Virus genome (UHGV): UHGV-0188647
Reading direction: 5' to 3' (one strand)
DNA length: 32,659 bases
From: a virus
Part shown: positions 6,560-32,597 of the stretch, in pieces
Numbering within the stretch: position 1 is the stretch's first letter
How the letters are laid out: every line of letters begins with the position of its first letter
Program-made: the position numbers and the translations under genes
The notes under the pieces: generated by a model
What the model was told of the DNA's origin: nothing
The model's input: the letters and a program-made list of their open reading frames with translations, nothing else
The model's database searches: none

Positions 6560-7161
6560 GGATTCACTCTCATTGTGTCAATAACATGGACCGCCCCGCC
6601 TTCATGCGCGGTGCCGCCGGAAATAATTGTTTCGTTGATATACGGATAGATCGTGATTTCTTCGCCAAGATAACTGGCGGCTCCCACCCAATGCGGGCCG
6701 CTGGTCTGCAGATTGATGGACATGCCGATCATGTGACGGCTGCAGGGTTTGGCATCGCTTATCAGTCGCTCAAGTTCCAGATAGGTATCTTCAGTGATGC
6801 CCTGATCCTGCACGCCGATATCCAGGCGAAACGTGCCTGGTGTTTCTCCGGTCTGCCACCACTCAATAATGCGGATCAGGAAGCCGAACGGTTCCACTAC
6901 CCGCCGCACGGCACTGGTGGTTCCTTTATGCTGATGAATATAAAAAGCATCCTTCACCACCTGGCGTTTGACACTTTCCGTCCAGTCCTCGTCCCAGCGA
7001 TCCACAGAGAACGCCCAGGCGAGATAAGGCAGGAAACTGACCGGACAGGTCGTTGGATTCCACAAGTCACGCAGCGGCACCTGCAAATCAGAAATCCCGC
7101 TGCAGGTTTGCGCCAGTCGGCGCTCCAGTGAAGTTGAACCCGGTGGCAGCAGACTATTCAT
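6556..7161 (-). CDS. I: baseplate protein (P2 gpI-like)
   Basis: 201-aa ORF between J and H; start/stop overlaps with neighbours; synteny V-W-J-I-H-G. Confidence 0.8.
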   Translation of the reverse strand: MNSLLPPGSTSLERRLAQTCSGISDLQVPLRDLWNPTTCPVSFLPYLAWAFSVDRWDEDWTESVKRQVVKDAFYIHQHKGTTSAVRRVVEPFGFLIRIIEWWQTGETPGTFRLDIGVQDQGITEDTYLELERLISDAKPCSRHMIGMSINLQTSGPHWVGAASYLGEEITIYPYINETIISGGTAHEGGAVHVIDTMRVNP

Positions 7162-8062
7162 CCGTTCCTCCGTTGGTTACGCTCCACTGCGTACATGATG
7201 CCGCCTGTGTTTTGTTCAGGACCACATCCGCCAGCGGCGAAGCCAGCTCCACACGCTGCACACCCTCAACATGCAGGGCGGCAAAGATGGCGCTACGGCG
7301 AATATCCCGGCCAAGACGCGTCTGACTGGCGATGTACTTCTGCAGACTGGCTTTTGCCGCTGCCATTACCGGCTCTGCTTCCGGTCCCGGATAGAGAAAA
7401 ATGGTGGCTTCCACGCGGTACGGGATGATTTCTGCGCTGCGAACCGTCAGACGGTCAGCCACCGGGCGGACGTTCTCACTGTTCAGGGCGTTCTCCACCA
7501 CATCCAGCAGGTCTTTTTCTGCTGTTCCGTCGCCTTCGCGACTCAGGACAGTCAGCACCACCTCTGCAGGGGCCGGACTGGTTGCACTGGCATCCGCCAC
7601 CCGACCGTCGGCGCTTCGGGCATGAAATTCATAAGCTGCAGTTGGCCCCGCAACTGAAAGCCCCTCAAAGGCTGCAGGCACACGCAGGCGTAACGCTTCA
7701 TCGCTTTCCATCACAGCCGCAACGGGCGGCACAGCGTCATCATCAGCAGGTATCACCGTCAGGCGTTTCACGTTGTAATTGGCGGCGAGCTGGTCCAGAT
7801 CGCCGCCCATCGCATAAGCCACCATCACCGCCTGCGCGGCTTCGTTAATGCGCTGGCGCAGAAGCAGCTCACGATAAGCGTTCTCTTGCAGCAATTTGGT
7901 GACGGGTTCAGATTCCAGTTCCAGCGTGCGGATCACTGCTTCCTGCTCATCTTTCGGATGAAGCGCAACAAATTCGGCCTTGCGTTCGGCAAGCAGCGTC
8001 TCAAAGTCCGGCACATCGACAATCTGCGGCGCAGGCAACTGCGAAAGGTCAATCACTGCCAT
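7154..8062 (-). CDS. J: baseplate assembly protein (P2 gpJ-like)
   Basis: Start placed at the internal Met (MAVIDLSQLPAPQIVDV...); the ORF track extends it to 8101, which overlaps W by 53 nt. Confidence 0.8.
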   Translation of the reverse strand: MAVIDLSQLPAPQIVDVPDFETLLAERKAEFVALHPKDEQEAVIRTLELESEPVTKLLQENAYRELLLRQRINEAAQAVMVAYAMGGDLDQLAANYNVKRLTVIPADDDAVPPVAAVMESDEALRLRVPAAFEGLSVAGPTAAYEFHARSADGRVADASATSPAPAEVVLTVLSREGDGTAEKDLLDVVENALNSENVRPVADRLTVRSAEIIPYRVEATIFLYPGPEAEPVMAAAKASLQKYIASQTRLGRDIRRSAIFAALHVEGVQRVELASPLADVVLNKTQAASCTQWSVTNGGTDE

Positions 8063-8408
8063 TCTCTGCTCCTGTTGATACGGAAAGGGAAACAGGCACA
8101 CCGTTATTACGCCGCCCGGTCAGCTCCACCACCATTGAACCGTCAAAATTGCTGTTAATGGTGATGGAATCCAGCGTCAGCCGTGGCTCCCAGCGACTCA
8201 GCGCCACATACACTGCCGACATGACCTGCAGGCGTAATGCCGGATTTTGTGGCTGGTCTATCAGTGCCGACAGCAGGGAACCATATTCCCGACGGGCAAT
8301 GCGGCTACCCTGCGGCGTCAGCAAAATGTCCCGCACCGACTGGCGCAGATGGTCAATATCAGTAATGGCTTTACCGCTGGTATTGTTCATCCCGCTATAA
8401 AGCGTCAT
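8049..8408 (-). CDS. W: baseplate protein (P2 gpW-like)
   Basis: 119-aa ORF between V and J; size and position match P2 W. Confidence 0.75.
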   Translation of the reverse strand: MTLYSGMNNTSGKAITDIDHLRQSVRDILLTPQGSRIARREYGSLLSALIDQPQNPALRLQVMSAVYVALSRWEPRLTLDSITINSNFDGSMVVELTGRRNNGVPVSLSVSTGAENGSD

Positions 8409-14025: not shown

Positions 14026-14859
14026 TCAGCAATTGGTCAGAGTGTCAGCGGGGGCGTTACCGCCTGTTGCACGCTGGCGGTAGTCCTGGCGGCTGTCTTC
14101 ATGACTCAGCTTATTCACCAGTTCGTTAAAAGCGGTTTGCTGCTCCTGCAGAGCAGTCTCCAGTTCAGACAGGCGTTCTTCCTGCTCAGACAGGGATTTT
14201 TCGGTGCGTGCGCTCAGGTTCTGCTGCTCAGTGGCGACCAGCTCCACGGCCTTATGCACATCAGAGAACCGGGCATCATCGGACTGCTCTTTTTTGGTGA
14301 ACAGCGCCGTGACACGGGCAAACAGGGACGGTTTGTCATCCTGGATTTCTTCCAGTTCGATCACCGTTTCCTCTGCAGCGGTAAAGAGATTGGCAGGATT
14401 CTGCTTGCGGCTTGCCAGCGGGTTATGGGCTGCACTGGCGCTGAATGTCAGCATTTCCGTACCCAGACTGGCTGGATCATCAGTGGCAGCCAGGCCGACC
14501 AGGTAGGCTTTGCCCGTATCAGCAAACTTCGGGCTGACTTCCATAGAGGTGAATAATTTCTGGCCTTTTTTCACCAGCTCCACCAGGGACTCCGTTGGCT
14601 CAACGTCGGCATACAGCGCCATCTTGCCTGCCAGCGGACCTTCCGTGATTTCTTCAGCAAACAGCGCCGTCACCTTGCCGTAGCGGTTAAAGGTGCTGTC
14701 CGGCAGATAAGACTTGATGTGCTCAAGGTTAATCAGCGCGGTATACACCGCCGGGTTGTAGCTGGCTGCCATCTGTTCCAGCCATTCACGCTGGATTTCG
14801 CGTCCGTCGGTGGTGGCACCTTCCACCCCGATGCGAAAACGCTTTGCTTTCACTGTCAT
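14026..14859 (-). CDS. O: capsid scaffolding protein (P2 gpO-like)
   Basis: 277-aa acidic ORF transcribed divergently from the terminase gene. Confidence 0.85.
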   Translation of the reverse strand: MTVKAKRFRIGVEGATTDGREIQREWLEQMAASYNPAVYTALINLEHIKSYLPDSTFNRYGKVTALFAEEITEGPLAGKMALYADVEPTESLVELVKKGQKLFTSMEVSPKFADTGKAYLVGLAATDDPASLGTEMLTFSASAAHNPLASRKQNPANLFTAAEETVIELEEIQDDKPSLFARVTALFTKKEQSDDARFSDVHKAVELVATEQQNLSARTEKSLSEQEERLSELETALQEQQTAFNELVNKLSHEDSRQDYRQRATGGNAPADTLTNC

Positions 14860-14937
14860 GAGCCGTGCTCCGTTAGAAAAAACTTACTGGAGCCTTATGG
14901 TTGCGGTGATGGGGGCAGTGAAACAATGCGCGGTATT

Positions 14938-14955
14938 TGTACCGACAACCACACA
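14938..14955. promoter_or_regulatory. late-promoter activator site (TGT-N12-ACA) in the divergent O/P region
   Basis: tgtaccgacaaccacaca is a perfect TGT-N12-ACA, nearly identical to the FI site; its spacing suits the leftward O promoter. No second perfect dyad for P was found. Confidence 0.4.
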
Positions 14956-15001
14956 AACCGCAGGCGGGGAAAGCCTTCATTCAAGGCTGTAGGTTTGTGC
15001 C

Positions 15002-16768
15002 ATGAACACCACACTGACACCCGCAGATCTCGATCCCCGTCGGCAGGCCATGCTGCTGTACTTTCAGGGATACCGCGTAGCCCGCATTGCTGAAATGCTG
15101 GGCGAGAAAGTTGCAACCGTTCACAGCTGGAAAAAACGCGACAAGTGGGGTGACTATGGGCCGCTGGATCAGATGCAGCTCACCACCGCCGCACGCTACT
15201 GCCAGCTCATTATGAAGGAGCACAAAGAAGGGAAAGATTTCAAAGAGATTGACCTGCTGGCGCGCCAGTCGGAGCGCCACGCGCGGATCGGCAAGTTTAA
15301 CAATGGCGGCAACGAATCCGACTTAAACCCTAACGTCGCCAACCGCAACAAAGGCCCGCGCCGTCAGCCGGAAAAGAATGTTTTCACCGATGAGCAGATT
15401 GAGAAGCTGGAAGAAATCTTCCATTCCTCCATGTTCAACTACCAGCGCCACTGGTGGGAAGCCGGAAAAACCAACCGCATCCGCAACCTGCTGAAGTCAC
15501 GCCAGATCGGCGCGACCTTTTACTTTGCCCGTGAAGCCCTGATTGACGCTCTGCTTACCGGACGTAACCAGATTTTTCTTTCCGCCAGCAAGGCACAGGC
15601 TCACGTCTTTAAGCAGTACATCATAGACTTCGCCAAAGAAGTCGAGGTGGAGCTGAAAGGCGATCCGATGGTGCTTCCTAACGGAGCCACGCTTTACTTC
15701 CTCGGCACCAATGCCCGCACGGCCCAGAGTTACCACGGCAACCTGTATCTGGATGAATATTTCTGGATACCGAAATTCCAGGAGCTGCGCAAAGTGGCTT
15801 CTGGTATGGCTATTCACAAAAAATGGCGACAAACCTATTTTTCCACGCCATCCAGCCTGACACACAGTGCTTATCCGTTCTGGTCCGGTGCGCTGTTCAA
15901 CCGTGGGCGCAATAAAGCCGATAAGGTGGACATCGACCTGTCCCACAGCAATCTGGCCCCCGGCCTGCTGTGCGCAGACGGGCAATACCGCCAGATAGTC
16001 ACCGTGGAAGATGCAGTGCGCGGCGGATGTAACCTTTTCGACCTCGATCAGTTGCGCATGGAGTACAGCCCGGACGAATACCAGAACCTGCTGATGTGCG
16101 AGTTTGTGGACGATCTCGCGTCCGTGTTCCCGCTCAGCGAGCTGCAGGCGTGCATGGTGGACAGTTGGGAAGTCTGGACCGACTTTCATGCACTGGCCCT
16201 GCGCCCGTTTGGCTGGCGCGAAGTGTGGATCGGTTATGACCCGGCAAAAGGTACGCAAAACGGCGACAGCGCCGGGTGCGTGGTGGTGGCACCGCCAGCC
16301 GTGCCGGGCGGTAAGTTCCGCATTCTTGAGCGTCACCAGTGGCGCGGGATGGACTTCCGCGCCCAGGCTAACGCCATCAAAAAACTGACTGAACAGTACA
16401 ACGTGACATACATCGGTATCGACTCAACCGGCGTCGGTCACGGGGTTTACGAGAACGTGAAAGCGTTTTTTCCTGCCGTCCGGGAGTTTGTCTACAACCC
16501 CAACGTTAAAAACGCCCTGGTACTCAAGGCCTACGACATTATTAGCCACCGCCGCCTGGAGTTTGACGCCGGGCACACCGACATAGCGCAGTCCTTTATG
16601 GCAATCCGTCGCGCCACCACTGCCAGCGGCAACCGCCCGACCTATGAGGCCAGCCGCAGCGAAGAAGCCAGCCACGCCGATCTGGCCTGGGCAACAATGC
16701 ACGCACTGTTTAACGAACCGCTGCAGGGCGAGTCCGCCAATACCAGCAATATTGTGGAGATTTTTTGA
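15002..16768 (+). CDS. P: terminase large (ATPase) subunit (P2 gpP-like)
   Basis: 588-aa ORF (P2 P is about 590 aa), divergent from O, followed by the portal gene with an ATGA overlap. Confidence 0.9.
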   Translation: MNTTLTPADLDPRRQAMLLYFQGYRVARIAEMLGEKVATVHSWKKRDKWGDYGPLDQMQLTTAARYCQLIMKEHKEGKDFKEIDLLARQSERHARIGKFNNGGNESDLNPNVANRNKGPRRQPEKNVFTDEQIEKLEEIFHSSMFNYQRHWWEAGKTNRIRNLLKSRQIGATFYFAREALIDALLTGRNQIFLSASKAQAHVFKQYIIDFAKEVEVELKGDPMVLPNGATLYFLGTNARTAQSYHGNLYLDEYFWIPKFQELRKVASGMAIHKKWRQTYFSTPSSLTHSAYPFWSGALFNRGRNKADKVDIDLSHSNLAPGLLCADGQYRQIVTVEDAVRGGCNLFDLDQLRMEYSPDEYQNLLMCEFVDDLASVFPLSELQACMVDSWEVWTDFHALALRPFGWREVWIGYDPAKGTQNGDSAGCVVVAPPAVPGGKFRILERHQWRGMDFRAQANAIKKLTEQYNVTYIGIDSTGVGHGVYENVKAFFPAVREFVYNPNVKNALVLKAYDIISHRRLEFDAGHTDIAQSFMAIRRATTASGNRPTYEASRSEEASHADLAWATMHALFNEPLQGESANTSNIVEIF

Positions 16769-17793
16769 TGGGAAAGAGTAAGAAAAACCGCGCTGCGGCG
16801 ACGAATCAGCTCAAGCATAAAAGCCAAACTTCAGCCGAAGCATTCAGCTTTGGCGATCCCGTTCCTGTTCTGGACCGCCGTGAACTGCTGGACTATGTGG
16901 AATGCGTACAGATGGACCGCTGGTATGAGCCGCCCGTCAGCTTTGACGGACTGGCACGAACCTTCCGCGCCGCCGTGCATCACAGCTCACCAATTGCGGT
17001 GAAATGCAACATTCTGACCAGTACCTACATCCCTCACCCGCTGCTCAGCCAGCAGGCTTTTTCACGTTTTGTGCAGGACTATCTGGTATTTGGTAACGCC
17101 TACCTGGAGAAACGCACGAACCGCTTCGGTGAAGTTATCGCCCTTGAGCCTGCTCTGGCAAAATACACCCGACGCGGGTTAGACCTGGATACCTACTGGT
17201 TTGTGCAATACGGTATGACAACCCAGCCGTATCAGTTCACGAAAGGCAGCATTTTTCATCTGATGGAACCGGACATCAACCAGGAGATCTACGGCCTGCC
17301 AGGTTATCTTTCTGCCATTCCATCAGCCCTGCTCAACGAGTCCGCCACGCTGTTCCGCCGCAAGTATTACATTAACGGCAGTCATGCAGGCTTCATCATG
17401 TACATGACCGATGCCGCGCAGAACCAGGAGGATGTGAACAACCTCCGCAATGCGATGAAAAGCGCCAAAGGCCCTGGCAACTTCCGCAACCTGTTTATGT
17501 ACTCGCCTAACGGCAAAAAGGACGGGCTTCAGATCATCCCGTTGTCAGAAGTCGCGGCGAAGGATGAGTTTCTGAGTATCAAAAATGTCAGCCGCGATGA
17601 CATGATGGCAGCGCATCGTGTGCCGCCGCAAATGATGGGGATTATGCCGAATAATGTTGGGGGGTTTGGGGATGTGGAGAAGGCAAGCCGTGTGTTTGTT
17701 CGTAACGAACTAATACCATTGCAAAAAAGATTGGATGAGTTAAATAATTGGTTAGACGATAAAATAATAACATTTAACACATACAATTTTTAA
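16765..17793 (+). CDS. Q: portal protein (P2 gpQ-like); last ~25 codons unusually AT-rich
   Basis: 342-aa ORF (P2 Q is about 344 aa) after the terminase gene, oriented toward cos; the C-terminal tail ...LDELNNWLDDKIITFNTYNF is encoded by AT-rich DNA unlike the rest of the gene. Confidence 0.85.
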   Translation: MMGKSKKNRAAATNQLKHKSQTSAEAFSFGDPVPVLDRRELLDYVECVQMDRWYEPPVSFDGLARTFRAAVHHSSPIAVKCNILTSTYIPHPLLSQQAFSRFVQDYLVFGNAYLEKRTNRFGEVIALEPALAKYTRRGLDLDTYWFVQYGMTTQPYQFTKGSIFHLMEPDINQEIYGLPGYLSAIPSALLNESATLFRRKYYINGSHAGFIMYMTDAAQNQEDVNNLRNAMKSAKGPGNFRNLFMYSPNGKKDGLQIIPLSEVAAKDEFLSIKNVSRDDMMAAHRVPPQMMGIMPNNVGGFGDVEKASRVFVRNELIPLQKRLDELNNWLDDKIITFNTYNF

Positions 17794-17823: not shown

Positions 17824-18345
17824 TCAGTTAATCAGTTTATTTAATGACTTAGACCACTTCTGTCCCAAATCATCAATATCAAAATCACCATCTCGCTGCT
17901 GCCATTTAAAAACTAAGGCTATAAGTTCACTCTTGAGGATTCTTTTATAATAATCCTTAGATTTTAATTGCTCAAGTATATGTTCACCAACCTCAGCAAG
18001 CTTTCTATGATTTAATTCTGACAGATCTCGATGCAAATGGTTAACTGATTTATACAAAGTATTTCCTTCAGTACGAGAAATATCAATACCTTTATCTTCA
18101 AACCATTGTGAATCAAGCCAAACCAAATCTATCGTAGCTGGCTCTGACATCGTGGTGGCAAGGGCAACAATAATTTTCTCTACCGATTCATCTTGAAAAT
18201 CGATAGAGTCAGAAACCCAAACTGACAAGGTGTTATTAGAGGTCCTTGTGCAACCTGTTATCGCGTCTGCGGATATATTGTCAGGTGCTCTACCTTTATT
18301 ACATTCCCATTTACTATGGGATATTTTACGCAATAAATATGTCAT
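17824..18345 (-). CDS. hypothetical protein, cargo operon gene 3 (173 aa)
   Basis: AT-rich ORF; its ATG overlaps the upstream gene's stop as TAATG (18343-18347); no family recognised; has an R-x6-H pair (RDLSELNH). Confidence 0.6.
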   Translation of the reverse strand: MTYLLRKISHSKWECNKGRAPDNISADAITGCTRTSNNTLSVWVSDSIDFQDESVEKIIVALATTMSEPATIDLVWLDSQWFEDKGIDISRTEGNTLYKSVNHLHRDLSELNHRKLAEVGEHILEQLKSKDYYKRILKSELIALVFKWQQRDGDFDIDDLGQKWSKSLNKLIN

Positions 18346-18992
18346 TATAGACTTCTCAAATATCCTATAACTGCTTCTTTATATTCTTCCACCCAATCAG
18401 CATCAAATTTCCTCATTCTTTCAAGGACTGGAATAAATGATTTTTCCCCCCAAGACTCAACTGCACGGATCGCTGCCTCAAATATAAGTTCATTCTCAAG
18501 AGAACAAACTCCCATAATCATAGCGTCAGCTTTATTACCTAACCATTCATATTCAATAGTCGATGCAAAATTAATGAAGTTCTTTACATGTTGATCATTC
18601 ATTCTGTACAATTGTACCCATGTCCTTTGAAAGGACTCTTGGAATAAATCCTGATTTTTATCATACAAGAACTCCATGTAAATCTGTGTCTTGCTTATCT
18701 CGCCTTCAATGTAATCTTCTGAACATGTTAACTCAATTAGTCTAGAGGTACATTTTGAAACCTGAATTTCAAAGTTCTGCTTAGTTGACGAACCTTGATT
18801 TATTGACTCAGTCTCTAATTGAAAGCCACCATTTGTTTTGCTATGTGACAGCTCATTTCTTTTAATATCAGCGTAAATGATATTGTTACCATCATAATAA
18901 TCAGAAAATGCACCTATTGAACTTACCCCATTTTTAAACTTAGGTAAGCCAAAAGGCTTTTCATCACTTATTATAAAACTATTCTTTACCAT
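18345..18992 (-). CDS. hypothetical protein, cargo operon gene 2 (215 aa)
   Basis: AT-rich ORF 9 bp after gene 1, with an AAGGTGA RBS; no family recognised. Confidence 0.6.
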   Translation of the reverse strand: MVKNSFIISDEKPFGLPKFKNGVSSIGAFSDYYDGNNIIYADIKRNELSHSKTNGGFQLETESINQGSSTKQNFEIQVSKCTSRLIELTCSEDYIEGEISKTQIYMEFLYDKNQDLFQESFQRTWVQLYRMNDQHVKNFINFASTIEYEWLGNKADAMIMGVCSLENELIFEAAIRAVESWGEKSFIPVLERMRKFDADWVEEYKEAVIGYLRSL

Positions 18993-19001
18993 AGCATCAC
19001 C

Positions 19002-19697
19002 TTACAGAGAAGTGTAGCGTTGTAAATTATCAATAGTTTTAAGATTGTCCTGACACAATAACTCTAGCACGCGGATATATTCATCCCAACCAAACCGCAT
19101 ATATCCATTTTGAGGAAGAGTATTAGTATCAGTTTCAAATAATACGCAATCACTTGGCATACCATTATTCAAAAATGGAGCTGAAATTTCAGCGCGTCTA
19201 ATTGTACTAATACTATTAATTTCTTCCTGATACTCTTCAATATTTTTCCTTACAGCTATACGATTGTCCCACTCAAATGGATTAACACCTTTATAGGTAA
19301 ACAAAGCATTGTAAAGCGAAGAGTAAACAGATTCATCCCCTTGATAGATACGTGAATTCAGAACAGCTATCCTATTTCCTTTTTTCATCGGAAATACGTT
19401 TTGTAGTTCCCTAGATATAGATAGAACCATTTCTGAAAACGCTTGAGGTTCCCCCCCCAAACCATTAAAAATGATTCCATGGCTAGGAAACTCGACTCTT
19501 ACTGTTTGATTGGTATCTACCATGATAAGAATTTGCTTTTTCTCACCAGTGATGGCATTAATCTCCTGACCAAAAGTAGGTACAAATCCAAATTTTCCAA
19601 TCTTATCAAGCATAGATCCAATAGTTAGTGTATTTGGAACTATATCATTATTATTTGTGAAAAAATTAATCTGATGCGTCTGTTCAATCAATTTCAT
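19002..19697 (-). CDS. hypothetical protein, cargo operon gene 1 (231 aa)
   Basis: AT-rich ORF with an AAGGAG RBS 5 nt upstream of the ATG; first gene downstream of the cos-like site; no family recognised. Confidence 0.6.
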   Translation of the reverse strand: MKLIEQTHQINFFTNNNDIVPNTLTIGSMLDKIGKFGFVPTFGQEINAITGEKKQILIMVDTNQTVRVEFPSHGIIFNGLGGEPQAFSEMVLSISRELQNVFPMKKGNRIAVLNSRIYQGDESVYSSLYNALFTYKGVNPFEWDNRIAVRKNIEEYQEEINSISTIRRAEISAPFLNNGMPSDCVLFETDTNTLPQNGYMRFGWDEYIRVLELLCQDNLKTIDNLQRYTSL

Positions 19698-20653: not shown

Positions 20654-23068
20654 TTAATACAGGTTCCGCCACTGATCATCTTCCTGCAAACGCTGGCTCC
20701 GATAGAAGATACGCAGGCCTGCTCCTGACGGAATACTGCCTCCGCGAAGGAGTAAATCGACCTCTTTCTCGCTGCCATCAAATCCTCTGGACTTCAGCTC
20801 ATACACGAGCTGCAGTCGCTGATGGTCTGTAATTCGCTGTTTGTAGTCTTTACGCCGTTTCGGTTTCACCAGGCATAACCTTGCTGCCAGTTCCCGGCGC
20901 TCTTTTTTGCTCATACTGTGCAGGTAATCGTGCAACTCCTTGTCATCCATGCTGGTAATGTCCGTTCTGGGGTCCCCATCAGCTGATTTATCTTTCTCCT
21001 GTTGGTTCAAATTTTCAGCAAGGGGACAGTTATTGCCACGAGTCCAAGGGGCGCAAGCGCCCTGGTCGGCTGCCGCCTCCTGAACGTCAACGGCCTTACG
21101 AACCATTTTCCACTTCACTGCATGAGTGCAGATCTTGCCCTCTGCAATGGGTGACCAGATGCCATAAATACGAATGCCGTGATCGCCATAGGCGGTCGGC
21201 TCTTCGTTGATTTCATAAGCGGTTCTGATGAGGTGATATTTGCGGGGAACCAGTACGCCGCCCTGCTTCATGATGTAGGTGGCAAAACAACCAGCATCAG
21301 CAGCAGCCAGAATGGCATCAAGACGCGGGTTATCCAGTACCGGCGCACCTGCTTTTTTGTCACCCTGTTGCCTTGCCGCCTGACCAGCCAGCAAGCGAAG
21401 TTCACGGTAAGCCTGACGTCCCGGAATACCAAAGAAGCGGAATTGCTGTACACGATGCAGAGACGCCCAGGCATTAACGTATTCAGCGTTATCACGCAGG
21501 GATTTACCCGTTTCCTTGCTGATCTCGCCAGCCAGACCACGCCCGTCAATGTTCTTACTGATGTATTTCGCGATGTAGCTTGTCGGCGTTCCTTTGCGCG
21601 GGTTTATCAGCTCAGATTTAAAGCGTGGACCAGTGTTATTACCCAGTTCCTCGCGGTCTTCACGGATGGCAAACTTACGCAACAATGCAGTAATGGCGCG
21701 GCGGTCTTTTTTGCGCATGAAACACAACAGGTGCCAGTGAACTGTACCGTCATGATGCGGCTCAGCCACCCGCACGCCATACCAGCGCAACCCGGCTTTG
21801 TGCATCGCCTTACGAAATGCAGCAAACATGCCGACCAGATAATCGCTGCTTTGTCTTACCGTCGCATTTGTCCAGGTTGGGTTTGGTCTGCCGTTATTGA
21901 GCGTGGAATGGAAACGTGACGGACAGGTAATGGTGTAGAAAACGGCGCAGTCACCGCGCATTTCCGCGATAAGCTCCAGACCTTTAACACAGGCCATCAT
22001 CTCATTGCGGCGGTGCGCCGGGTTGCTGCTGCTGGCGTTTACCACGTCTTCCATATCCAGCGTGTCGCCCTCTTCGTTCACCAGTTCATGAGAACGGAAA
22101 AACTCCAGTGACTTGCGGCGCTGCTCACGTTTATGAATCACGGCTTCATAGCTGACATAGGGAGATGCTTTTTTGCTGACCAGGCAGACAGCACGCAACT
22201 GCTCTTCCCGCCATTCGCAACGCATTTTCCATAATTTCCGGTACCACCAGTCGGCACACAACATACGCGCCAGCGAACCCGGAATGAGTTCATAGGGCAC
22301 GGGTTGACGGCGGTTTCTTTTCCGACGGAGTTGCTCAAACGCAGGCGGAATAACATCCAGACGCAGGGTTTCCGCTGCCACCTTTTCCCATGTTTTGCGG
22401 ATTTCTTCTGGCTTAACGTCATCGGTGGCGTACAAATCACCACAAGCGGCATCAAGACACATGCTCATATGCGCAGCGACAAGAGTAGACAGGCGTTTCA
22501 CCTGATCCTGACTCATTTCAGGCAGAATCAGCAGGCCGTCCAGCCCTACATGGCTTGCCATAAAACGAAAAGATGCAGATAGCTGGCTGTCGCGTACATG
22601 CTCCAGTCGCTCCAGACATGGCTTAATCGTCTCACGCAAATAGCGGGAATAAGCCTTTGGCCTGCCCAGGCTGCTGAAGTATTCAATACGTTGCATCAGC
22701 GGCTTGCTGATATGGGAAGGCTGGGCATTGACGTCCGCCAGAATGACCATATCTGGATTAAAACGCTGCTGCTCATGCGCCAGCTTTGCCCGACTAATGA
22801 GCTTATCCTGCTCCATTTCGCGCTGGACAGGATCACGGGATTCATTAAAGAAATAACGCTCCCAGACCTGATCACTCAGTGCCTCGCGGCGCAGGTGTTC
22901 CTGCTCGTTATCGGCAGCGTACAGAGCGATCAGGTTTGAAAGCGCAGAAACCGGCGCAACTTCCGCCGGGTCCAGATAAGGGTTAATGGCCTTTTTCGGG
23001 CTGTTCCATGAGAACGCTGCGGCAGCCTCGTTAAAGCCGCAGCAGTTGTTCATATCGGCATGGCTCAT
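20654..23068 (-). CDS. A: replication initiation endonuclease (P2 gpA-like, rolling-circle initiator)
   Basis: 804-aa ORF with an HxH-type motif (TVHWHLL) and a tyrosine pair motif [10 protein letters not shown] (Y-x-x-K-Y); its position matches P2/186 gene A. Confidence 0.85.
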
Positions 23069-25863: not shown

Positions 25864-26496
25864 ATGATACAGGTAAAGGTTGGAGAGAATACAGGGGGAA
25901 GAGAGGCTATCCATAGACTAATGGCAGCCTATGATTTCAAGTCCAGACAGCAACTTTGCGATCACTTAGGCGCATCAAAAAGCACCATGGCAAACAGATA
26001 CTTAAGAGATAGTTTTCCTGCAGAGTGGGTGATTCAGTGCGCCTTGGAAACAGGAGTTTCTTTACTGTGGCTAACCACCGGACAGGGAGAGCCAGGTCCA
26101 AACATTGAACCTAAAAAAAATATCAATTCCGTGAACTCCAGCAAGGTTGTACCTCTTTCTGAACTAGTATCTCCTGAAATTGACAAGGCGACTCTCAACG
26201 GTGGTTTATTGGTCGATGCTGGAAAAGCAATCATTGATAGCAGCATACTCCCCTCAGACTCAAGCAACCTACTGCTGGTGACTACTTCTGGTGATTCTTA
26301 TTTAATAGATCGCAACCAAACACCACCAGTAAATGGTATGTGGTTAGTCGATATCGACGGGATAAAAAGCATCGTTAAATTGACTCGACTCCCGGGAAAC
26401 AAATTAGTAGTGCATCAGGATGATTCATCGTTTGAGTGCGGTCTGGATGACATTGAGGTAGTAGGCCGCGCACTGAAAATCATTAAGAGCCTTTGA
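25864..26496 (+). CDS. cI: immunity repressor (186 CI-like)
   Basis: 210-aa protein, divergent from the apl-like gene and immediately upstream of int (TGATATG junction). Confidence 0.7.
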   Translation: MIQVKVGENTGGREAIHRLMAAYDFKSRQQLCDHLGASKSTMANRYLRDSFPAEWVIQCALETGVSLLWLTTGQGEPGPNIEPKKNINSVNSSKVVPLSELVSPEIDKATLNGGLLVDAGKAIIDSSILPSDSSNLLLVTTSGDSYLIDRNQTPPVNGMWLVDIDGIKSIVKLTRLPGNKLVVHQDDSSFECGLDDIEVVGRALKIIKSL

Positions 26497-26497
26497 T

Positions 26498-27520
26498 ATG
26501 ACCATCAGAAAACAGCCGAACGGAAAATGGTTGTGTGAGTGCTATCCCAATGGACGCAATGGCAAGCGCGTGCGTAAGCAATTTGCCACGAAAGGCGAAG
26601 CCATTGCGTTTGAAAGCTTCACAATGGAAGAAGTGAATAAAAAACCGTGGTTGGGTGAAAAGGATGATCGGCGACGCCTATCAGAATTAATTGAGCTTTG
26701 GTATTCCCTATATGGTCAAACACTCGCAGACCCCAAGCGCCTCATGGCGAAACTTAGAATTATCTGTAATGGTCTAGGCGATCCCATCGCCTCAGAACTG
26801 ACAGCTGGTGACTTTACAAAATACCGCGAAGCACGGTTAAAAGGTGAAATACGAAATGAAGATGGCACGCTTATGTCGCCCGTTAAGCCCCGCACGGTAA
26901 ACCTTGAACAGCGCAATCTATCATCTGTGTTCGGTACATTAAAAAAACTAGGACACTGGTCAGCACCAAACCCGCTGGCAGGACTTCCGACCTTCAAAAT
27001 TGCCGAAGGTGAGCTGGCTTTTCTTTCCACGGACGAAATCAAGCGCCTGTTGGCGGCATGTGCTGAATCTCAAAGCCCTAGCTTACTAATGATTGCAAAA
27101 ATATGCCTAGCTACTGGCGCACGGTGGAGTGAAGCCGAAAATCTGCAGGGCCATCAAATATCGAAATACCGAATTACTTATACAAAAACAAAAGGCAAGA
27201 AAAACCGTACTGTGCCGATATCTCAGGATCTGTATGATGAACTCCCCAAAAACAGAGGGAAGCTATTCACTCCATGTAGAAAAGCCTTTGAGCGGGCGGT
27301 TAAACGCGCGGGTATTGAGCTGCCAGAAGGCCAATGCACCCATGTACTGCGCCACACATTCGCCAGTCACTTCATGATGAATGGCGGAAACATACTCGTT
27401 TTGAGGGATATTTTAGGGCATTCAGATATTAAGATGACTATGGTTTATGCCCATTTTTCACCAGAGCATCTTGAAGATGCAGTAACTAAAAACCCACTAT
27501 TTAATTTAAATATTATATGA
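26498..27520 (+). CDS. int: tyrosine integrase (P2/186 family)
   Basis: C-terminal catalytic region HVLRHTFASH...LGHSDIKMTMVYAH (R, H-x-x-R and Y signature); 340 aa. Confidence 0.9.
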   Translation: MTIRKQPNGKWLCECYPNGRNGKRVRKQFATKGEAIAFESFTMEEVNKKPWLGEKDDRRRLSELIELWYSLYGQTLADPKRLMAKLRIICNGLGDPIASELTAGDFTKYREARLKGEIRNEDGTLMSPVKPRTVNLEQRNLSSVFGTLKKLGHWSAPNPLAGLPTFKIAEGELAFLSTDEIKRLLAACAESQSPSLLMIAKICLATGARWSEAENLQGHQISKYRITYTKTKGKKNRTVPISQDLYDELPKNRGKLFTPCRKAFERAVKRAGIELPEGQCTHVLRHTFASHFMMNGGNILVLRDILGHSDIKMTMVYAHFSPEHLEDAVTKNPLFNLNII

Positions 27521-28578
27521 ACATTAATACTAGCTTTACTGGAATTATTGTGTATATTTTGGCAATTATTCTTTTTGCGTTTGTATCAATATATAAAAAG
27601 TGGTACATTCTCGATAAAAGAAATTTATTTCAACAGAAATTATTTTGGATTTCAATTGCAGTACCACTGCTGTCATTCATTTATTTTGGAGCATTTGCAT
27701 GGTTTGGTAAAATACCTGTTCTTTCTGCTCACGGATATGCCAGATTCTATGAGATAAGCAAATTCCCATTATTGATACTCGCAAGTTCTGTACCATTAGC
27801 TTCCATAGTAAATAACATTCACAGAACGATACAAACCGAAGCACAAATTAATTCATCTGAAATCAAAAATGCAATCGATAGACATTTTGCTCATGAGAAA
27901 AATTTCGTAGATAAAATTAAAGAAATATCAAGCTTTACGATGCAAAGCTTTGTAGATGACGCATCAAAATATTATAATTACAATGATAGCAACAAAATTA
28001 AAATACTAACAACTCATGAAATTAAAATCTCAAACCCATACTTATTATATTCCAATATATATACAGAATCGTCAATGGATATCACATCCAATTATTCACC
28101 AGACGAGAACTTTAAAAAAAGCATATTGTCAATCCTAGATACCATTAATAATAACTTATCAAAAGATAAGGTTACACCCCATTCAAATGCAGAAGATTAC
28201 CTTACCAGATTAAATACAATTTCATATAACATAGCTAAATTATTAGATACTTTATGCGTAGATTGTATCTCGATAGCCTATATAGAGTTAAAAATCAACG
28301 GCACTAAAATAAGAACGTTCACCCCTACAGAATCAATGTTAGCCGAATCACTTGAGGCTGCATTTTATCTATCTAAAAAGATATTAAAACTAGCTTACGG
28401 ATTTCAGCTTCAAAACTACAGTAATATATATAACTACTTGTACATTGGTGAAATTAAATTTGATACAGAACAATTTTCTAAATTTTTGCAACCATTCTAT
28501 TCTCCTGAATGGTCAGCATACGTAATGGAGAAACCGGTGACAGTTGATGATGGCGGCACTTTGGCGGCAGAGGATTAA
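27517..28578 (+). CDS. hypothetical membrane protein (353 aa), AT-rich moron translationally coupled to int
   Basis: ATGA start/stop overlap with int; 2-3 N-terminal transmembrane helices followed by about 250 aa of soluble N/K/I/Y-rich sequence; no family recognised. Confidence 0.6.
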   Translation: MNINTSFTGIIVYILAIILFAFVSIYKKWYILDKRNLFQQKLFWISIAVPLLSFIYFGAFAWFGKIPVLSAHGYARFYEISKFPLLILASSVPLASIVNNIHRTIQTEAQINSSEIKNAIDRHFAHEKNFVDKIKEISSFTMQSFVDDASKYYNYNDSNKIKILTTHEIKISNPYLLYSNIYTESSMDITSNYSPDENFKKSILSILDTINNNLSKDKVTPHSNAEDYLTRLNTISYNIAKLLDTLCVDCISIAYIELKINGTKIRTFTPTESMLAESLEAAFYLSKKILKLAYGFQLQNYSNIYNYLYIGEIKFDTEQFSKFLQPFYSPEWSAYVMEKPVTVDDGGTLAAED

Positions 28579-28663
28579 AAATAGGTAAAACAAGCAAATA
28601 CACAATAATACTAACACACTAATTTTAAAGATAAATACATGTTTTTATTATAGTAAAAATGGT

Positions 28664-28708
28664 ATGTAGGAATTTCGGACGCGGGTTCAACTCCCGCCAG
28701 CTCCACCA
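28664..28708 (+). other. ssrA: 3'-terminal 45 nt of ssrA (tmRNA), prophage att junction
   Basis: atgtaggaatttcggacgcgggttcaactcccgccagctccacca matches the 3' end of E. coli tmRNA including the CCA, as I recall it; the sequence upstream is AT-rich and unrelated. Confidence 0.75.
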
Positions 28709-28754
28709 AAATTCTCCATCGGTGATTACCAGAGTCATCCGATGAAGTCCTAAG

Positions 28755-28788
28755 AGCCCGCACGGCGCAAGCCCTGCGGGCTTTTTTG
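28755..28788 (+). terminator. rho-independent terminator (native ssrA terminator-like)
   Basis: Long GC hairpin agcccgca...tgcgggct with a GCAA tetraloop, followed by TTTTTT. Confidence 0.55.
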
Positions 28789-28913
28789 TGCCCTCAATTT
28801 GTCCCGCGAAGTCCGAAGAAAACTAATTAAATCCGATCCTTTTAGGCACCTTGTTAGGCACCTCATAAAGCTTTATTGTTTTTTGAGGTGCCTAAAACTA
28901 TGGAAACCCGGCA

Positions 28914-30155
28914 ATGGCAAGACAAACCAAACCTCTATCCGTTAAAGAAATAGAATCAGCCAAACCCAAGGAGGCGGACTACGTTCTCTATGATGGCGAT
29001 GGCCTTGAGCTACTCATTAAATCCAGCGGGAGTAAAATCTGGCAGTTTCGCTACATTCGCCCTGTCACCAAGAAACGAGCAAAGAAGAGCATAGGCTCCT
29101 ACCCGTCAGTTACCCTTGCCGATGCCAGAAACTACCGTGCAGAGTCCCGCTCACTACTGGCTAAACAGATCGATCCGCAGGAACATCAGCAAGAACAATT
29201 GCGCAGTTCGCTGGAAGCCAAAACCAACACTTTCCAACTCGTAGCTGAACGTTGGTGGAATGTGAAGAAAGCCAGTGTGACAGAGGACTATGCGGAAGAT
29301 ATCTGGCGCTCTCTTGAAAGAGACGTCTTTCCTGCGATTGGCGACGTTAGCGTTACAGATATTAAAGCTCATACACTGGTTCAGGCCGTACAACCGGTTC
29401 AGGCCAGAGGAGCACTGGAAACTGTTCGTCGCCTGTGCCAACGTATTAATGAGGTCATGATCTATGCCCAGAACACAGGGCTGATTGATGCTGTTCCCAG
29501 CGTTAATATCGGTAAAGCCTTCGAGAAGCCTCAGAAAAAGAACATGCCCAGCATTCGACCGGATCAGCTACCTCAGTTAATGCAGACGATGCGAACAGCC
29601 AGCATTAGCCTTTCCACACGCTGCCTGTTCATGTGGCAACTTCTTACTATTACCCGCCCTGCCGAAGCGGCTGAAGCTCTCTGGGAAGAGGTAGACATAG
29701 AAGCGCGAGAGTGGAAGATTCCTGCAGCACGCATGAAAATGAACCGCGACCATACTGTTCCATTGTCAGATGAAGCAATTGCGATACTAGAGATGATGAA
29801 GCCGTTAAGTGGAAATCGAGAATTTATCTTTCCCAGCCGCATCAAGCCAAACCAGCCGATGAACAGTCAGACCGTAAACGCATCGCTAAAACGCGCAGGT
29901 TTTGGTGGGGTGCTCGTTTCACACGGCCTGCGATCTATCGCCAGTACAGCCCTTAATGAGCAGGGATTTCCACCTGATGTTATTGAGGCTGCACTTGCTC
30001 ATGTGGATAAGAATGAGGTTCGTCGTGCGTATAACCGTAGTGATTATCTTGAGCAGCGACGGCCTATGATGCAGTGGTGGGCTGATTTTGTGATGGCTGC
30101 AGATCACGGTAGTATGATTGAAGGAGGGATAAAGGCAATGCGGTTAGTTGGATGA
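28914..30155 (+). CDS. P4-type tyrosine integrase (IntA-like) of a second integrated element
   Basis: 413 aa; N-terminus LSVKEIESAKPKEADYVLYDGDGLELLIKSSGSKIWQFRY is the typical P4-integrase arm-binding domain; lies directly downstream of the ssrA 3' end as in ssrA-linked islands. Confidence 0.85.
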   Translation: MARQTKPLSVKEIESAKPKEADYVLYDGDGLELLIKSSGSKIWQFRYIRPVTKKRAKKSIGSYPSVTLADARNYRAESRSLLAKQIDPQEHQQEQLRSSLEAKTNTFQLVAERWWNVKKASVTEDYAEDIWRSLERDVFPAIGDVSVTDIKAHTLVQAVQPVQARGALETVRRLCQRINEVMIYAQNTGLIDAVPSVNIGKAFEKPQKKNMPSIRPDQLPQLMQTMRTASISLSTRCLFMWQLLTITRPAEAAEALWEEVDIEAREWKIPAARMKMNRDHTVPLSDEAIAILEMMKPLSGNREFIFPSRIKPNQPMNSQTVNASLKRAGFGGVLVSHGLRSIASTALNEQGFPPDVIEAALAHVDKNEVRRAYNRSDYLEQRRPMMQWWADFVMAADHGSMIEGGIKAMRLVG

Positions 30156-30293: not shown

Positions 30294-32597
30294 CTATTTT
30301 AAATCAGCCTTTGCGGCTCGAATATCTGCGTTTTTTGCTGAGTATTCCCATTCGTCAGCGATTCTAAATAGCATTGCAGAAGTACGGACGCAGTGGGGCA
30401 TTGAATTTGCCCATTCTCGGTACTGCTCAGCTAATATCCTTTCTTGGTTTCCACCTTCGTAACGCATACGAGCAAATACCCCCCTTTTATTGTACCTACC
30501 AATTTGTATACCTTGCTCTAACTCATCAGAAGATAATATTTCAATGATGTGCCGAATTGCTTCATGTGGCCAGGAATTATCTACTGAGCTATTAGGGGCA
30601 TGTGCCAGAATTTTTCCTATTACATGATCAGTGATTTCTTGGCGATGATGCAATTTTGCTAAATGGCGTACATTCTCACACCAATCTTCAAGTTTATCTT
30701 GATCAATTTCATTGTCTATCTGCCCTGGTAGTATTCGTAATTTTTCAAGTAATCTGTATATAGAAGTAGCTCTTTTAACTTCCAACTCCGATGGTTCTGT
30801 TTGTTCATCTTCGTCACTACGATATACAATACATATTGCTTCTATAAAAACCTCTGGCTTTTTCATCATTAGACGATGCAGGATAAGTGGCTCATCGCTA
30901 TCCGGAAAACAAGGCAAGTAGGTCATTTCTTTAAATGCCAAATCTGTTTCAGAAACATCGTTACGTTGTTTGAGTTCATCAAAAACTTTTTTTACATAGT
31001 ACGATAGCATTGTATCAAATTGGATATCCTGGCTATTTATTTCTTTAACGACTATATCTAGAAGATATAAAAGTGTTGTAGATGGAATCTCAGAAAGGCG
31101 TTGATTTGCTGATATAATAGCAGCAAGACCCCGGCCCCTTTCTATATATTTATCCATAAGAACAAATAAATCCGAAGTTTTACCCATCATTGCAATGGGT
31201 TGTTTTTGCAACCAATATTTTTCGTTGATGTTATCTTCAAACCCTTCAATAATGCTCCATATCTCTTGTGAGTCTCTTAACGATGCTAAGATTTTCCCAG
31301 CCCTATCAGGGGTAATTTTAAACTGTTTAAAATACACTTTTATTTTATTAAGCCATTCAGCACCAAAGCATTCAACACCATATTGCATTAACAACCCACA
31401 AACTTCATCAATATTTTTTTTGTTGTTAATAAGCATTACAAACAAATCATTTAATTTTTCTTCATCCAACGAGAGTGCTGATATATGCCTTGCTGCAATA
31501 AAAACATTATTAACTTGTTGAAAAAGGTCTTTCACCCCAGACAAACCTAAAGTAAAGTATATTTCCCTAAGTTTTTCACTTCGCATTTCTTCGACAGAAG
31601 AAAAAATTCCGCCAGCATTTTCAATTGACTCTTCAATATCAGAATCCCAATCATTGAAAATCCATAAACTGGCTCTAACCATGTCAATTGGTTTATAATT
31701 ATCAAGTATTTTCGCTATTTTTTCCATAGACTCAAATTTAAATGCCCAGTTCGCATCTGAATATTTTTTATGGCGAGAATACTCATGACGCAAAGCCTCC
31801 CATACGATGAACTGATCCTCTTCAGTTTGTTGAGAAAGGCAAAGTTCAAGATGAGAAAGTGTTTCATCTATTGCATTCTCAGGGAATGAGCTTAAATGAG
31901 AGATTAGGATTTCCCATCTTGTTGGGAGTATACCTGCAAGTTTAATTGCTTCTTGGATAATAAAGATTTGCCCCTCCCAAACAACGCCCCACGTTAGTTT
32001 TTCTACATCTTTATCCGACTCTCTGAACTTCATTTTTTGGTTTTGATCAGAGGTATCATGGGAGCGAGGAAGGAGATTTTGTAACAAACTCCACCCAATA
32101 CTAGGAACAATAGTGATAATTTTTTTTATAATTGCATTTCTAACTTTTACTGGTGCCCATGTATTAGGAGACCATGCCAGAAAAATGGTTCTTAAACTAT
32201 TAAGAGGGCGATCTGAGTAAGTTCCTCCGGGATCTATTACAGCGAGTTTTGCAAGACAGATTGCAGCGCGTAATAGATATGTTTGTTCCCAAGCCAAGGC
32301 TTCCAATGCCCATTTTAATCCATGATAATGACTTCGAGGAGTTAACAGCCCTTTATCTTCATTGAATATTGGAGCAATCATTTCCCCATTGCCCTTAAGC
32401 AATTGCTCAAGGGCATCAAGGAAAGGGCCAGGGGCAGCTTCTGCCAGCAGCGGAAGTTGATCTCGCAAACTAACAAATAGTCGATGGTCGTTAGCAAGTC
32501 CCGGAATACTCTGAACTATTTTGTTAACAAAATCTTGGGGTGTCATACCAGTAACCCGGAATTCGGCCTGTTCATGTAATATGATCTTACCCAGCAA
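30294..32597 (-). CDS. large hypothetical protein (767 aa), AT-rich island cargo
   Basis: Long uninterrupted AT-rich ORF convergent with the P4-type integrase; no Walker A or other motif recognised; the start may be the Met at 32597 or the internal Met at residue 17. Confidence 0.6.
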   Translation of the reverse strand: MLGKIILHEQAEFRVTGMTPQDFVNKIVQSIPGLANDHRLFVSLRDQLPLLAEAAPGPFLDALEQLLKGNGEMIAPIFNEDKGLLTPRSHYHGLKWALEALAWEQTYLLRAAICLAKLAVIDPGGTYSDRPLNSLRTIFLAWSPNTWAPVKVRNAIIKKIITIVPSIGWSLLQNLLPRSHDTSDQNQKMKFRESDKDVEKLTWGVVWEGQIFIIQEAIKLAGILPTRWEILISHLSSFPENAIDETLSHLELCLSQQTEEDQFIVWEALRHEYSRHKKYSDANWAFKFESMEKIAKILDNYKPIDMVRASLWIFNDWDSDIEESIENAGGIFSSVEEMRSEKLREIYFTLGLSGVKDLFQQVNNVFIAARHISALSLDEEKLNDLFVMLINNKKNIDEVCGLLMQYGVECFGAEWLNKIKVYFKQFKITPDRAGKILASLRDSQEIWSIIEGFEDNINEKYWLQKQPIAMMGKTSDLFVLMDKYIERGRGLAAIISANQRLSEIPSTTLLYLLDIVVKEINSQDIQFDTMLSYYVKKVFDELKQRNDVSETDLAFKEMTYLPCFPDSDEPLILHRLMMKKPEVFIEAICIVYRSDEDEQTEPSELEVKRATSIYRLLEKLRILPGQIDNEIDQDKLEDWCENVRHLAKLHHRQEITDHVIGKILAHAPNSSVDNSWPHEAIRHIIEILSSDELEQGIQIGRYNKRGVFARMRYEGGNQERILAEQYREWANSMPHCVRTSAMLFRIADEWEYSAKNADIRAAKADLK

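Follow-up and report, generated by a model that had tools for sequence, protein, structure and literature searches.

Genes and features of the locus

This analysis concerns an open reading frame (ORF) of 353 amino acids (aa) located at the integrase end of a prophage carried by the virus genome UHGV-0188647 (32,659 nucleotides (nt), the whole stretch of DNA analyzed, hereafter called the window). The window contains most of a 186/P2-like prophage, i.e., tail and head genes, terminase and portal genes (portal at 16765-17793), then the replication gene gpA (20654-23068) and, past it, early genes (dam, cII and fil-type). Judging from the comparison of related loci, the ORF is a dispensable, swappable and promoterless accessory cargo of this prophage, and it is a good and well-delimited candidate for phage exclusion. 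The features found at this end of the prophage are the following (strand in brackets, where the feature has one).

25864-26496 (+): 186-type CI immunity repressor (Pfam Phage_CI_repr, 5e-31; Phage_CI_C, 6e-28), opening the lysogenic (leftward) operon
26498-27520 (+): int, tyrosine integrase of P2/186 type (Pfam Int_N, 2e-29; Phage_integrase, 2e-24)
27499-28549: exchangeable cassette of ~1051 bp, devoid of DNA similarity to prophages with an empty slot or another cargo
27517-28578 (+): the ORF, predicted inner-membrane protein of 353 aa, identical to WP_096939969.1, PHROG 17460 family
28550-28668: conserved phage flank, which directly adjoins int in prophage L013 (empty slot) and follows each of the other cargos
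28669-28708 (+): ssrA 3′ fragment of 40 nt, i.e., T-arm and acceptor end of the transfer-messenger RNA (tmRNA) (Rfam tmRNA, partial, 34 bits, E 3e-12)
28769-28790 (+): intrinsic-terminator-like hairpin (28769-28783) and T-run, the first terminator-like site past cI-int-ORF on this strand
28914-30155 (+): second tyrosine integrase, of P4/CP4-57 type (Arm-DNA-bind_3, Phage_int_M and Phage_integrase)

The segment 27517-28578 is a genuine gene rather than a frame left open by chance. With a G+C content of 31%, the expected stop spacing is ~13 codons and the chance of finding no stop over 353 codons is ~4e-13; the longest open run reaches 129 codons across 1000 shuffles and 56 codons on the opposite strand of the ORF. 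The initial annotation, made from the letters alone, had described a strongly AT-rich ORF, with a soluble domain rich in asparagine, lysine, isoleucine and tyrosine, that starts with an ATGA overlap on the int stop codon and occupies the whole interval from int to the att junction. All of this holds. The G+C content is 0.31 (0.29 in 500-nt windows), while int has 0.45-0.47 and the structural genes have 0.52-0.60. The protein contains 11.9% I, 7.6% K, 7.1% N and 6.8% Y. The start of the ORF overlaps the end of int by 4 nt (27517-27520), in ATATGAAC (int ATA TGA, ORF ATG AAC), and the ORF stop at 28578 is followed by the ssrA 3′ fragment. No Shine-Dalgarno sequence is visible within the 25 nt located 5′ of the start. 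Public records differ in the start codon that they retain, giving either 353 aa (ATG at 27517) or 342 aa (GTG of codon 12, 27550).

The identical protein, WP_096939969.1 ("hypothetical protein"), is encoded by 86 contigs of E. coli and Shigella sonnei. The exact allele is absent from the complete genomes of E. coli, in which the best DNA matches cover the 5′ third to half of the ORF at 70-75% identity.

An exchangeable cassette between int and the att junction

The edges of the cassette were established by blastn comparison with four related prophages whose slot is empty (L013) or carries GapS1 (L011), an HNH endonuclease (L012) or a 418-aa protein (L014). Similarity ends at 27495-27514 (~27498, in the final codons of int) and resumes at 28550-28551, the variable segment of the window being essentially the ORF alone. 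In the empty slot of strain APEC-O117H42, both flanks are only 28 nt apart. On the left side, the last three to nine codons of the integrase vary with the downstream cargo, the agreement ending at ...EDAVTKNPL. On the right side, the last nine codons of the ORF and its stop (...GGTLAAED and stop) are encoded by the conserved flank, which explains both the "G-x-x-LAAE" tail shared by many homologues and the low model confidence of this tail. The right flank probably corresponds to an arm of attP; two copies of the repeat TGGCGGCA open it, at 28551-28558 and 28562-28569 (11 bp apart), and are probably protein-binding sites of this arm.

The ssrA 3′ fragment begins ~90 nt past the ORF stop and is found in a single copy in the window, where ARAGORN detected no complete tmRNA gene. 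This fragment is the att core of the int-proximal prophage junction. Since the ORF adjoins this ssrA-derived junction, the prophage has no further gene beyond it on the int-proximal side.

Among complete genomes of E. coli, the slot contains GapS1 (506 aa), an HNH endonuclease (331 aa) that gives a PADLOC HNH match, a 418-aa hypothetical protein or a homologue of the ORF (54% identity), or is empty; GapS1 occupies it in many of these genomes. A wider survey was carried out on 80 IMG/VR loci, not dereplicated, whose integrase is 90-98% identical to that of the window. It gave the following occupancy.

Second family of unassigned function (395-418 aa): 22/80 loci
Family of the ORF: 18/80 loci
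Empty slot: 17/80 loci
GapS1: 8/80 loci
At least five rarer cargos: remainder of the classifiable loci

At least nine cargo families, besides empty sites, are found behind integrases that are 90-98% identical. All the alternative cargos have the same orientation as int and begin 5-40 nt downstream of it. The commonest occupant, i.e., the second family of 395-418 aa (for example, at 2627-3883 of L014 and at 7184-8377 of L002), has no Pfam or PADLOC match. In Klebsiella aerogenes, a member of the ORF family is followed, in tandem, by a 397-aa member of this second family.

The interval between int and att has been listed as a minor defence hotspot of P2-like phages, the main one being located between gpA and gpQ (PMC13586616; see also PMC9122126). 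Like the cargos of these hotspots (Rousset et al. 2022, PMC9122126; Moura de Sousa and colleagues 2026, PMC13586616), the ORF is inserted where the prophages differ, with conserved core features on either side. Taken as an operational class, P2-like defence-hotspot cargo describes its genomic setting: unrelated cargos alternate in its interval and known defences share its site. Among the latter, GapS1 is a validated single-protein defence, including by native expression and by deletion of the native gene of E. coli (bioRxiv 10.1101/2023.03.28.534373). Unlike the hotspot cargos already catalogued, the ORF family does not appear among the systems detected or tested in the searched texts of the two hotspot studies (PMC9122126, PMC13586616), and PADLOC is blind to it.

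Expression in the lysogen

Among the loci retrieved with the family profile, ~70 keep the gene order CI-int-ORF; their integrases are 90-96% identical, whereas their ORFs share just 29-54% identity with the one studied here. Taken as a whole, the comparison of related loci strongly supports co-transcription of cI, int and the ORF. The position of the first in-frame ATG relative to the int stop was determined in 82 related loci: it is located at -4, as in the window, in 29 of them and between -38 and +5 in 76. The family feature is a tight junction with int rather than the exact ATGA overlap.

The 3′ half of int contains no promoter-like site, and the first terminator-like site on the cI-int-ORF strand is the one at 28769. 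The cassette, almost reduced to the ORF, leaves no space for a promoter or a terminator of its own. Furthermore, in phage 186, whose switch layout has been described (PMC7498355), an int::lacZ fusion downstream of cI reports the leftward, lysogenic (pL/pE) transcription (PMC7708051). On these grounds, the ORF probably comes third, after cI and int, in the lysogenic operon, and its translation would be tied to that of int through the 4-nt overlap. The lysogen would then contain a low, constitutive amount of its product.

Protein architecture and conservation

A confident AlphaFold2 model was built with 53 homologues (predicted local distance difference test score (pLDDT) of 84.9). It shows helices at residues 3-26 and 41-62, then one long helix at 71-137 that comprises the third transmembrane (TM) segment and ~40 juxtamembrane residues, and finally an alpha/beta domain. 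The hydrophobic segments obtained by Kyte-Doolittle analysis (residues 7-25, 42-62 and 80-100) coincide with the first two helices and with the start of the long one. The initial annotation had proposed two or three N-terminal TM helices, and three is the number that both approaches support. The protein can be divided as follows (all on the + strand).

27535-27591: TM1, residues 7-25, of variable sequence and missing from short members (235-245 aa)
27640-27816: conserved hairpin made of TM2 (42-62), a predicted periplasmic loop (63-79) and TM3 (80-100), from hydropathy and AlphaFold
27814-27900: juxtamembrane helix, residues 100-128, with the signature N-I-H-R-T-I-Q-T ... Q-I ... K-N ... D ... 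H-x-K
27928-28575: C-terminal domain, residues 138-353, hypervariable, acidic, alpha/beta, predicted to be cytoplasmic

Conservation is very unevenly distributed along the protein. The mean pairwise identity is 62% for residues 29-137 compared to 24% for the C-terminal domain, and 44% compared to 15% across a broader set of 97 diverse members. Three residues (L37, H102 and Q106) are invariant in this broader set, and at least 90% of its members share Q40, F43, P50, W62, G73, F77, P84 and L88 as well as R103, T104, Q110, I111, K117, N118, D121, H126, K128 and Y178. The signature block of the juxtamembrane helix is modelled with a pLDDT of 79-94 and is continuous with TM3. Since TM1 is missing from the members of 235-245 aa, the minimal core consists of the TM2-TM3 hairpin and the juxtamembrane helix.

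In 48 of the 53 homologues and in 73 of the 97 diverse members, loop 27-41 exceeds loop 63-79 in its number of lysine and arginine residues, which suggests an N-out, C-in topology with a large cytoplasmic domain. This domain has an isoelectric point of 4.8 (family median of 5.4). The family alignment reveals no conserved catalytic-looking motif in it, P174 being its sole invariant residue. A pore-lining stripe, or a coiled-coil or oligomer-interface stripe, on the juxtamembrane helix was considered and dropped, the periodicity of conservation along this helix being not significant (p 0.13-0.2).

A widespread family of prophage proteins

PHROG 17460, a family devoid of functional annotation, is the sole curated match of the ORF (E 1.3e-46, residues 11-308 aligned with profile positions 8-306 of 343). 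The protein has no match in Pfam or NCBIfam and no family in PADLOC-DB v2.0.0 at E ≤ 1, in agreement with the initial annotation, which had recognised no family. Pfam searches with the 97 members and 10 additional diverse relatives gave nothing but scattered sub-threshold chance matches. Sequence and profile searches of the PDB gave no match, fold searches of the PDB with two confident AlphaFold models gave no specific match, and Foldseek comparison of the full-length model with BFVD returned nothing at E ≤ 0.001. The remote-homology and structure searches that had been proposed as a check thus lead to no assignable family in Pfam, NCBIfam, PADLOC, PDB or BFVD. We found no paper naming the protein accessions WP_096939969 or WP_051594477. 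Overall, we found no existing description of this protein family or of its fold, while its kind, i.e., lysogen-expressed hotspot cargo and candidate exclusion membrane protein, is familiar.

The family is large. A word-indexed search retrieved 81 clusters (at 90% identity), all annotated as "hypothetical protein" from Enterobacterales and none with a Pfam domain. A hidden Markov model search with the family profile retrieved 865 representatives at E ≤ 1e-3 and at least 449 at E ≤ 1e-10 (clusters counted at 50% identity), mostly of 320-400 aa and mostly from prophages of Enterobacterales, including Klebsiella, Proteus and Providencia. One locus belongs to Pseudomonas chlororaphis, where the gene adjoins umuDC.

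Members of the family are not restricted to the neighbourhood of int. In Providencia, some are located in the gpA-gpQ hotspot, and one P2-like prophage of Providencia rettgeri (CP086257.1, locus L097) carries two divergent paralogues (hhalign probability 99.2%) at 7001-8182 and 14387-15182, one of them in the gpA-gpQ hotspot and the other after int with a 4-nt overlap. The same prophage has an extra gene of 254 aa between CI and int. In Proteus mirabilis, one member is found past the tail-fibre genes, where a siphovirus-type prophage ends.

Comparison with known systems

As for genomic location, GapS1 takes the identical int-att slot of sister prophages, immediately past int and oriented like the ORF. 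The two proteins are unrelated: unlike the ORF product, GapS1 is a soluble protein of 506 aa and a predicted PD-(D/E)xK phosphodiesterase.

SieA of P22, which acts in superinfection exclusion at the inner membrane, resembles the ORF product in being prophage-encoded, in having three predicted TM helices and in needing no partner gene. However, SieA is shorter (~162 aa) and devoid of a large cytoplasmic domain, and its motif FxRYPxEAxxFNK (PMC10883804) has no counterpart in the ORF. Membership of the SieA family was rejected, hhalign of the family alignment giving a probability of 0.3% with five columns aligned. SNIPE, a membrane-bound nuclease active during genome injection (PMC13190303), shares with the ORF a predicted N-out, C-in topology, a cytoplasmic working domain close to the membrane, a single-protein organization and a modular diversified region. 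SNIPE/PD-lambda-1 was rejected on domain content, as the ORF has no DUF4041, no GIY-YIG nuclease domain and no PADLOC match. Furthermore, the distribution of conservation is reversed: the anchor is the least conserved part of SNIPE and its nuclease is conserved, whereas the ORF has a constrained membrane part and a variable, acidic C-terminal domain.

Single-protein abortive-infection factors anchored in the membrane and TM effectors of defence systems (for example, PdpSau of S. aureus, PMC10127798, and the TM effectors of P4 and P2 hotspots, PMC9122126) share with the ORF product N-terminal TM helices, a soluble domain and a prophage location, and the ORF product could likewise cause a loss of membrane integrity on triggering. 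It differs from them in that it has no sequence relation to them and no adjacent signalling partner, such as a cyclase or reverse transcriptase.

Three other assignments were also rejected. HEPN-type abortive-infection nucleases (AbiV, HepS) are recognized by a HEPN fold and a conserved Rx4-6H motif, which the ORF does not display. SLATT and CBASS- or Pycsar-type TM effectors combine a SLATT or nucleotide-sensor domain with a neighbouring enzyme that makes the signal; for the ORF there is no Pfam match, and in most loci the neighbours are just int and the att site. Finally, the ORF product does not have the features of a holin, which is a small TM protein encoded in a lysis cassette: it has 353 aa, a soluble domain of ~215 aa and a location at the int-att end of the prophage.

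Proposed function and alternative explanations

The initial annotation had proposed that the ORF acts in superinfection exclusion, abortive infection or lysogenic conversion, and this class fits the genomic context. Within it, the comparative data make it fairly probable that the ORF protein excludes other phages from the lysogen. The same slot is used by GapS1, the family is also found in the gpA-gpQ hotspot, one prophage carries two paralogues, and the ORFs diverge (29-54% identity) while the integrases remain 90-96% identical.

As for the mechanism, we tentatively favour a sensor-effector action, similar to abortive infection, over a block of injection, because the invariant polar juxtamembrane residues exceed the constraint that a mere anchor would need. 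Recognition of a phage protein would fall to the fast-evolving cytoplasmic domain, and the conserved module in the membrane would execute the response; the simplest way would be to perturb the inner membrane and thereby abort the infection. Single-protein sensor-effector defences usually have such a layout. The best explanation as a whole, to which we give a probability of about 0.4, is thus that the ORF is a cassette cargo, expressed in the lysogen, that excludes phages by a sensor-effector mechanism. A bolder version is doubtful: the family would constitute a large group of single-protein anti-phage systems in which the hairpin and the H-R-T-x-Q helix form a new membrane effector or docking module, the swappable cytoplasmic domain sets phage specificity and the coupling to int sets the dose.

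Several points weigh against a lysogen-expressed sensor-effector. The exact ATGA overlap is found in only 29 of the 82 loci, and H-NS could damp the expression of a gene of 31% G+C in an enterobacterium. The topology is suggested by hydropathy and by the positive-inside rule, which is a heuristic, and conservation along the juxtamembrane helix shows no significant helical periodicity (p 0.13-0.2). It should also be emphasized that hotspots hold non-defence genes too, a machine-learning defence signal being found in only 15-32% of the P2 proteins of unassigned function (PMC13586616).

Among the alternatives, superinfection exclusion at the inner membrane survives best, although we consider it unlikely. 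The hairpin would dock onto a conserved inner-membrane component of the host involved in phage DNA entry and the variable cytoplasmic domain would bind tape-measure or ejection proteins on their emergence, so that DNA delivery would be blocked and the cell left unharmed. Such a role would suit an inner-membrane protein with three TM helices, like P22 SieA (PMC10883804), that is probably produced constitutively from the lysogenic operon. SNIPE offers a precedent, as an N-out, C-in anchored protein that contacts ManYZ and the tape measure protein and thereby acts where injection takes place (PMC13190303), and the high conservation of the predicted periplasmic loop and TM helices is what would be expected for contact with a host partner. 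However, neither SieA homology (hhalign probability 0.3%) nor the DUF4041 and GIY-YIG domains of SNIPE are found, the constraint lies on the membrane part and not on the cytoplasmic part, in reverse of SNIPE, and the acidic C-terminal domain argues against DNA binding.

It is quite improbable that the ORF acts in a lysogenic conversion unrelated to phages, i.e., as a membrane protein altering the envelope physiology, stress tolerance or virulence of the host. An AT-rich moron with lysogen-type expression, found in prophages of Enterobacterales including pathogens, would be a plausible vehicle for such a function, but the 97 diverse members display no enzyme or transporter signature and the bulk of the protein is predicted to be cytoplasmic. 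Moreover, the fast turnover of the C-terminal domain, the pair of paralogues and the sharing of both P2 hotspots with validated defences look like an arms race rather than host adaptation.

A role in the phage life cycle (regulating integration or excision, timing lysis, or stabilising the prophage as a membrane-toxin addiction module) is hardly credible: the gene has a physical and translational link to int and membrane proteins can be toxic, but it is missing or replaced in prophages with a near-identical int and att flank and is therefore dispensable, its family is also found far from int (gpA-gpQ hotspot) and in a non-P2 prophage, no partner (antitoxin) gene accompanies it and it lies outside any lysis cassette.

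If the ORF product does exclude phages, a widespread prophage family of Enterobacterales that current detectors miss would be added to the catalogue of defences, together with a membrane module for which we found no structural precedent. The int-att interval of 186-like phages would then constitute an "expression slot" in which promoterless cargos are expressed along with the repressor, an idea that could be used for mining other candidates, such as the 395-418 aa family. Such genes would also shape which therapeutic or temperate phages infect lysogens of E. coli, Shigella and Klebsiella.

Other features of the window

The hairpin at 28769-28783 was taken as the ssrA terminator. A weak Rfam match to IsrM (28699-28787, 32 bits compared to a gathering score of 376) overlaps the ssrA 3′ end and this terminator-like region; we treated it as noise or as shared ssrA-flank sequence. 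Since the second integrase gene lies just past the displaced ssrA fragment and the hairpin, two integrative elements are integrated in tandem at ssrA.

In related loci, the islands found behind the second integrase carry a retron Ec48-type reverse transcriptase with an effector, paired protein kinases with a PP2C-type phosphatase, or a gene set with an LmuB_C domain. In the window, this island contains an AT-rich ORF of 767 aa (30294-32597, - strand), with no Pfam, PADLOC or NCBIfam match, that aligns with positions 488-1255 of the 1258 positions of PHROG 18693 (no assigned function, E=0). This ORF possibly corresponds to the C-terminal portion of a longer gene, split or truncated, that extends towards the window end.

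The interval between the portal gene and gpA, i.e., the main P2 defence hotspot, contains in the window three packed AT-rich ORFs (17824-19697, - strand) of 173, 215 and 231 aa, with a G+C content of 0.33-0.40. They have no Pfam or PADLOC match and correspond to PHROGs 10743, 21208 and 19817, each without assigned function. These three ORFs make up a second candidate for a cargo or defence cassette of this prophage.

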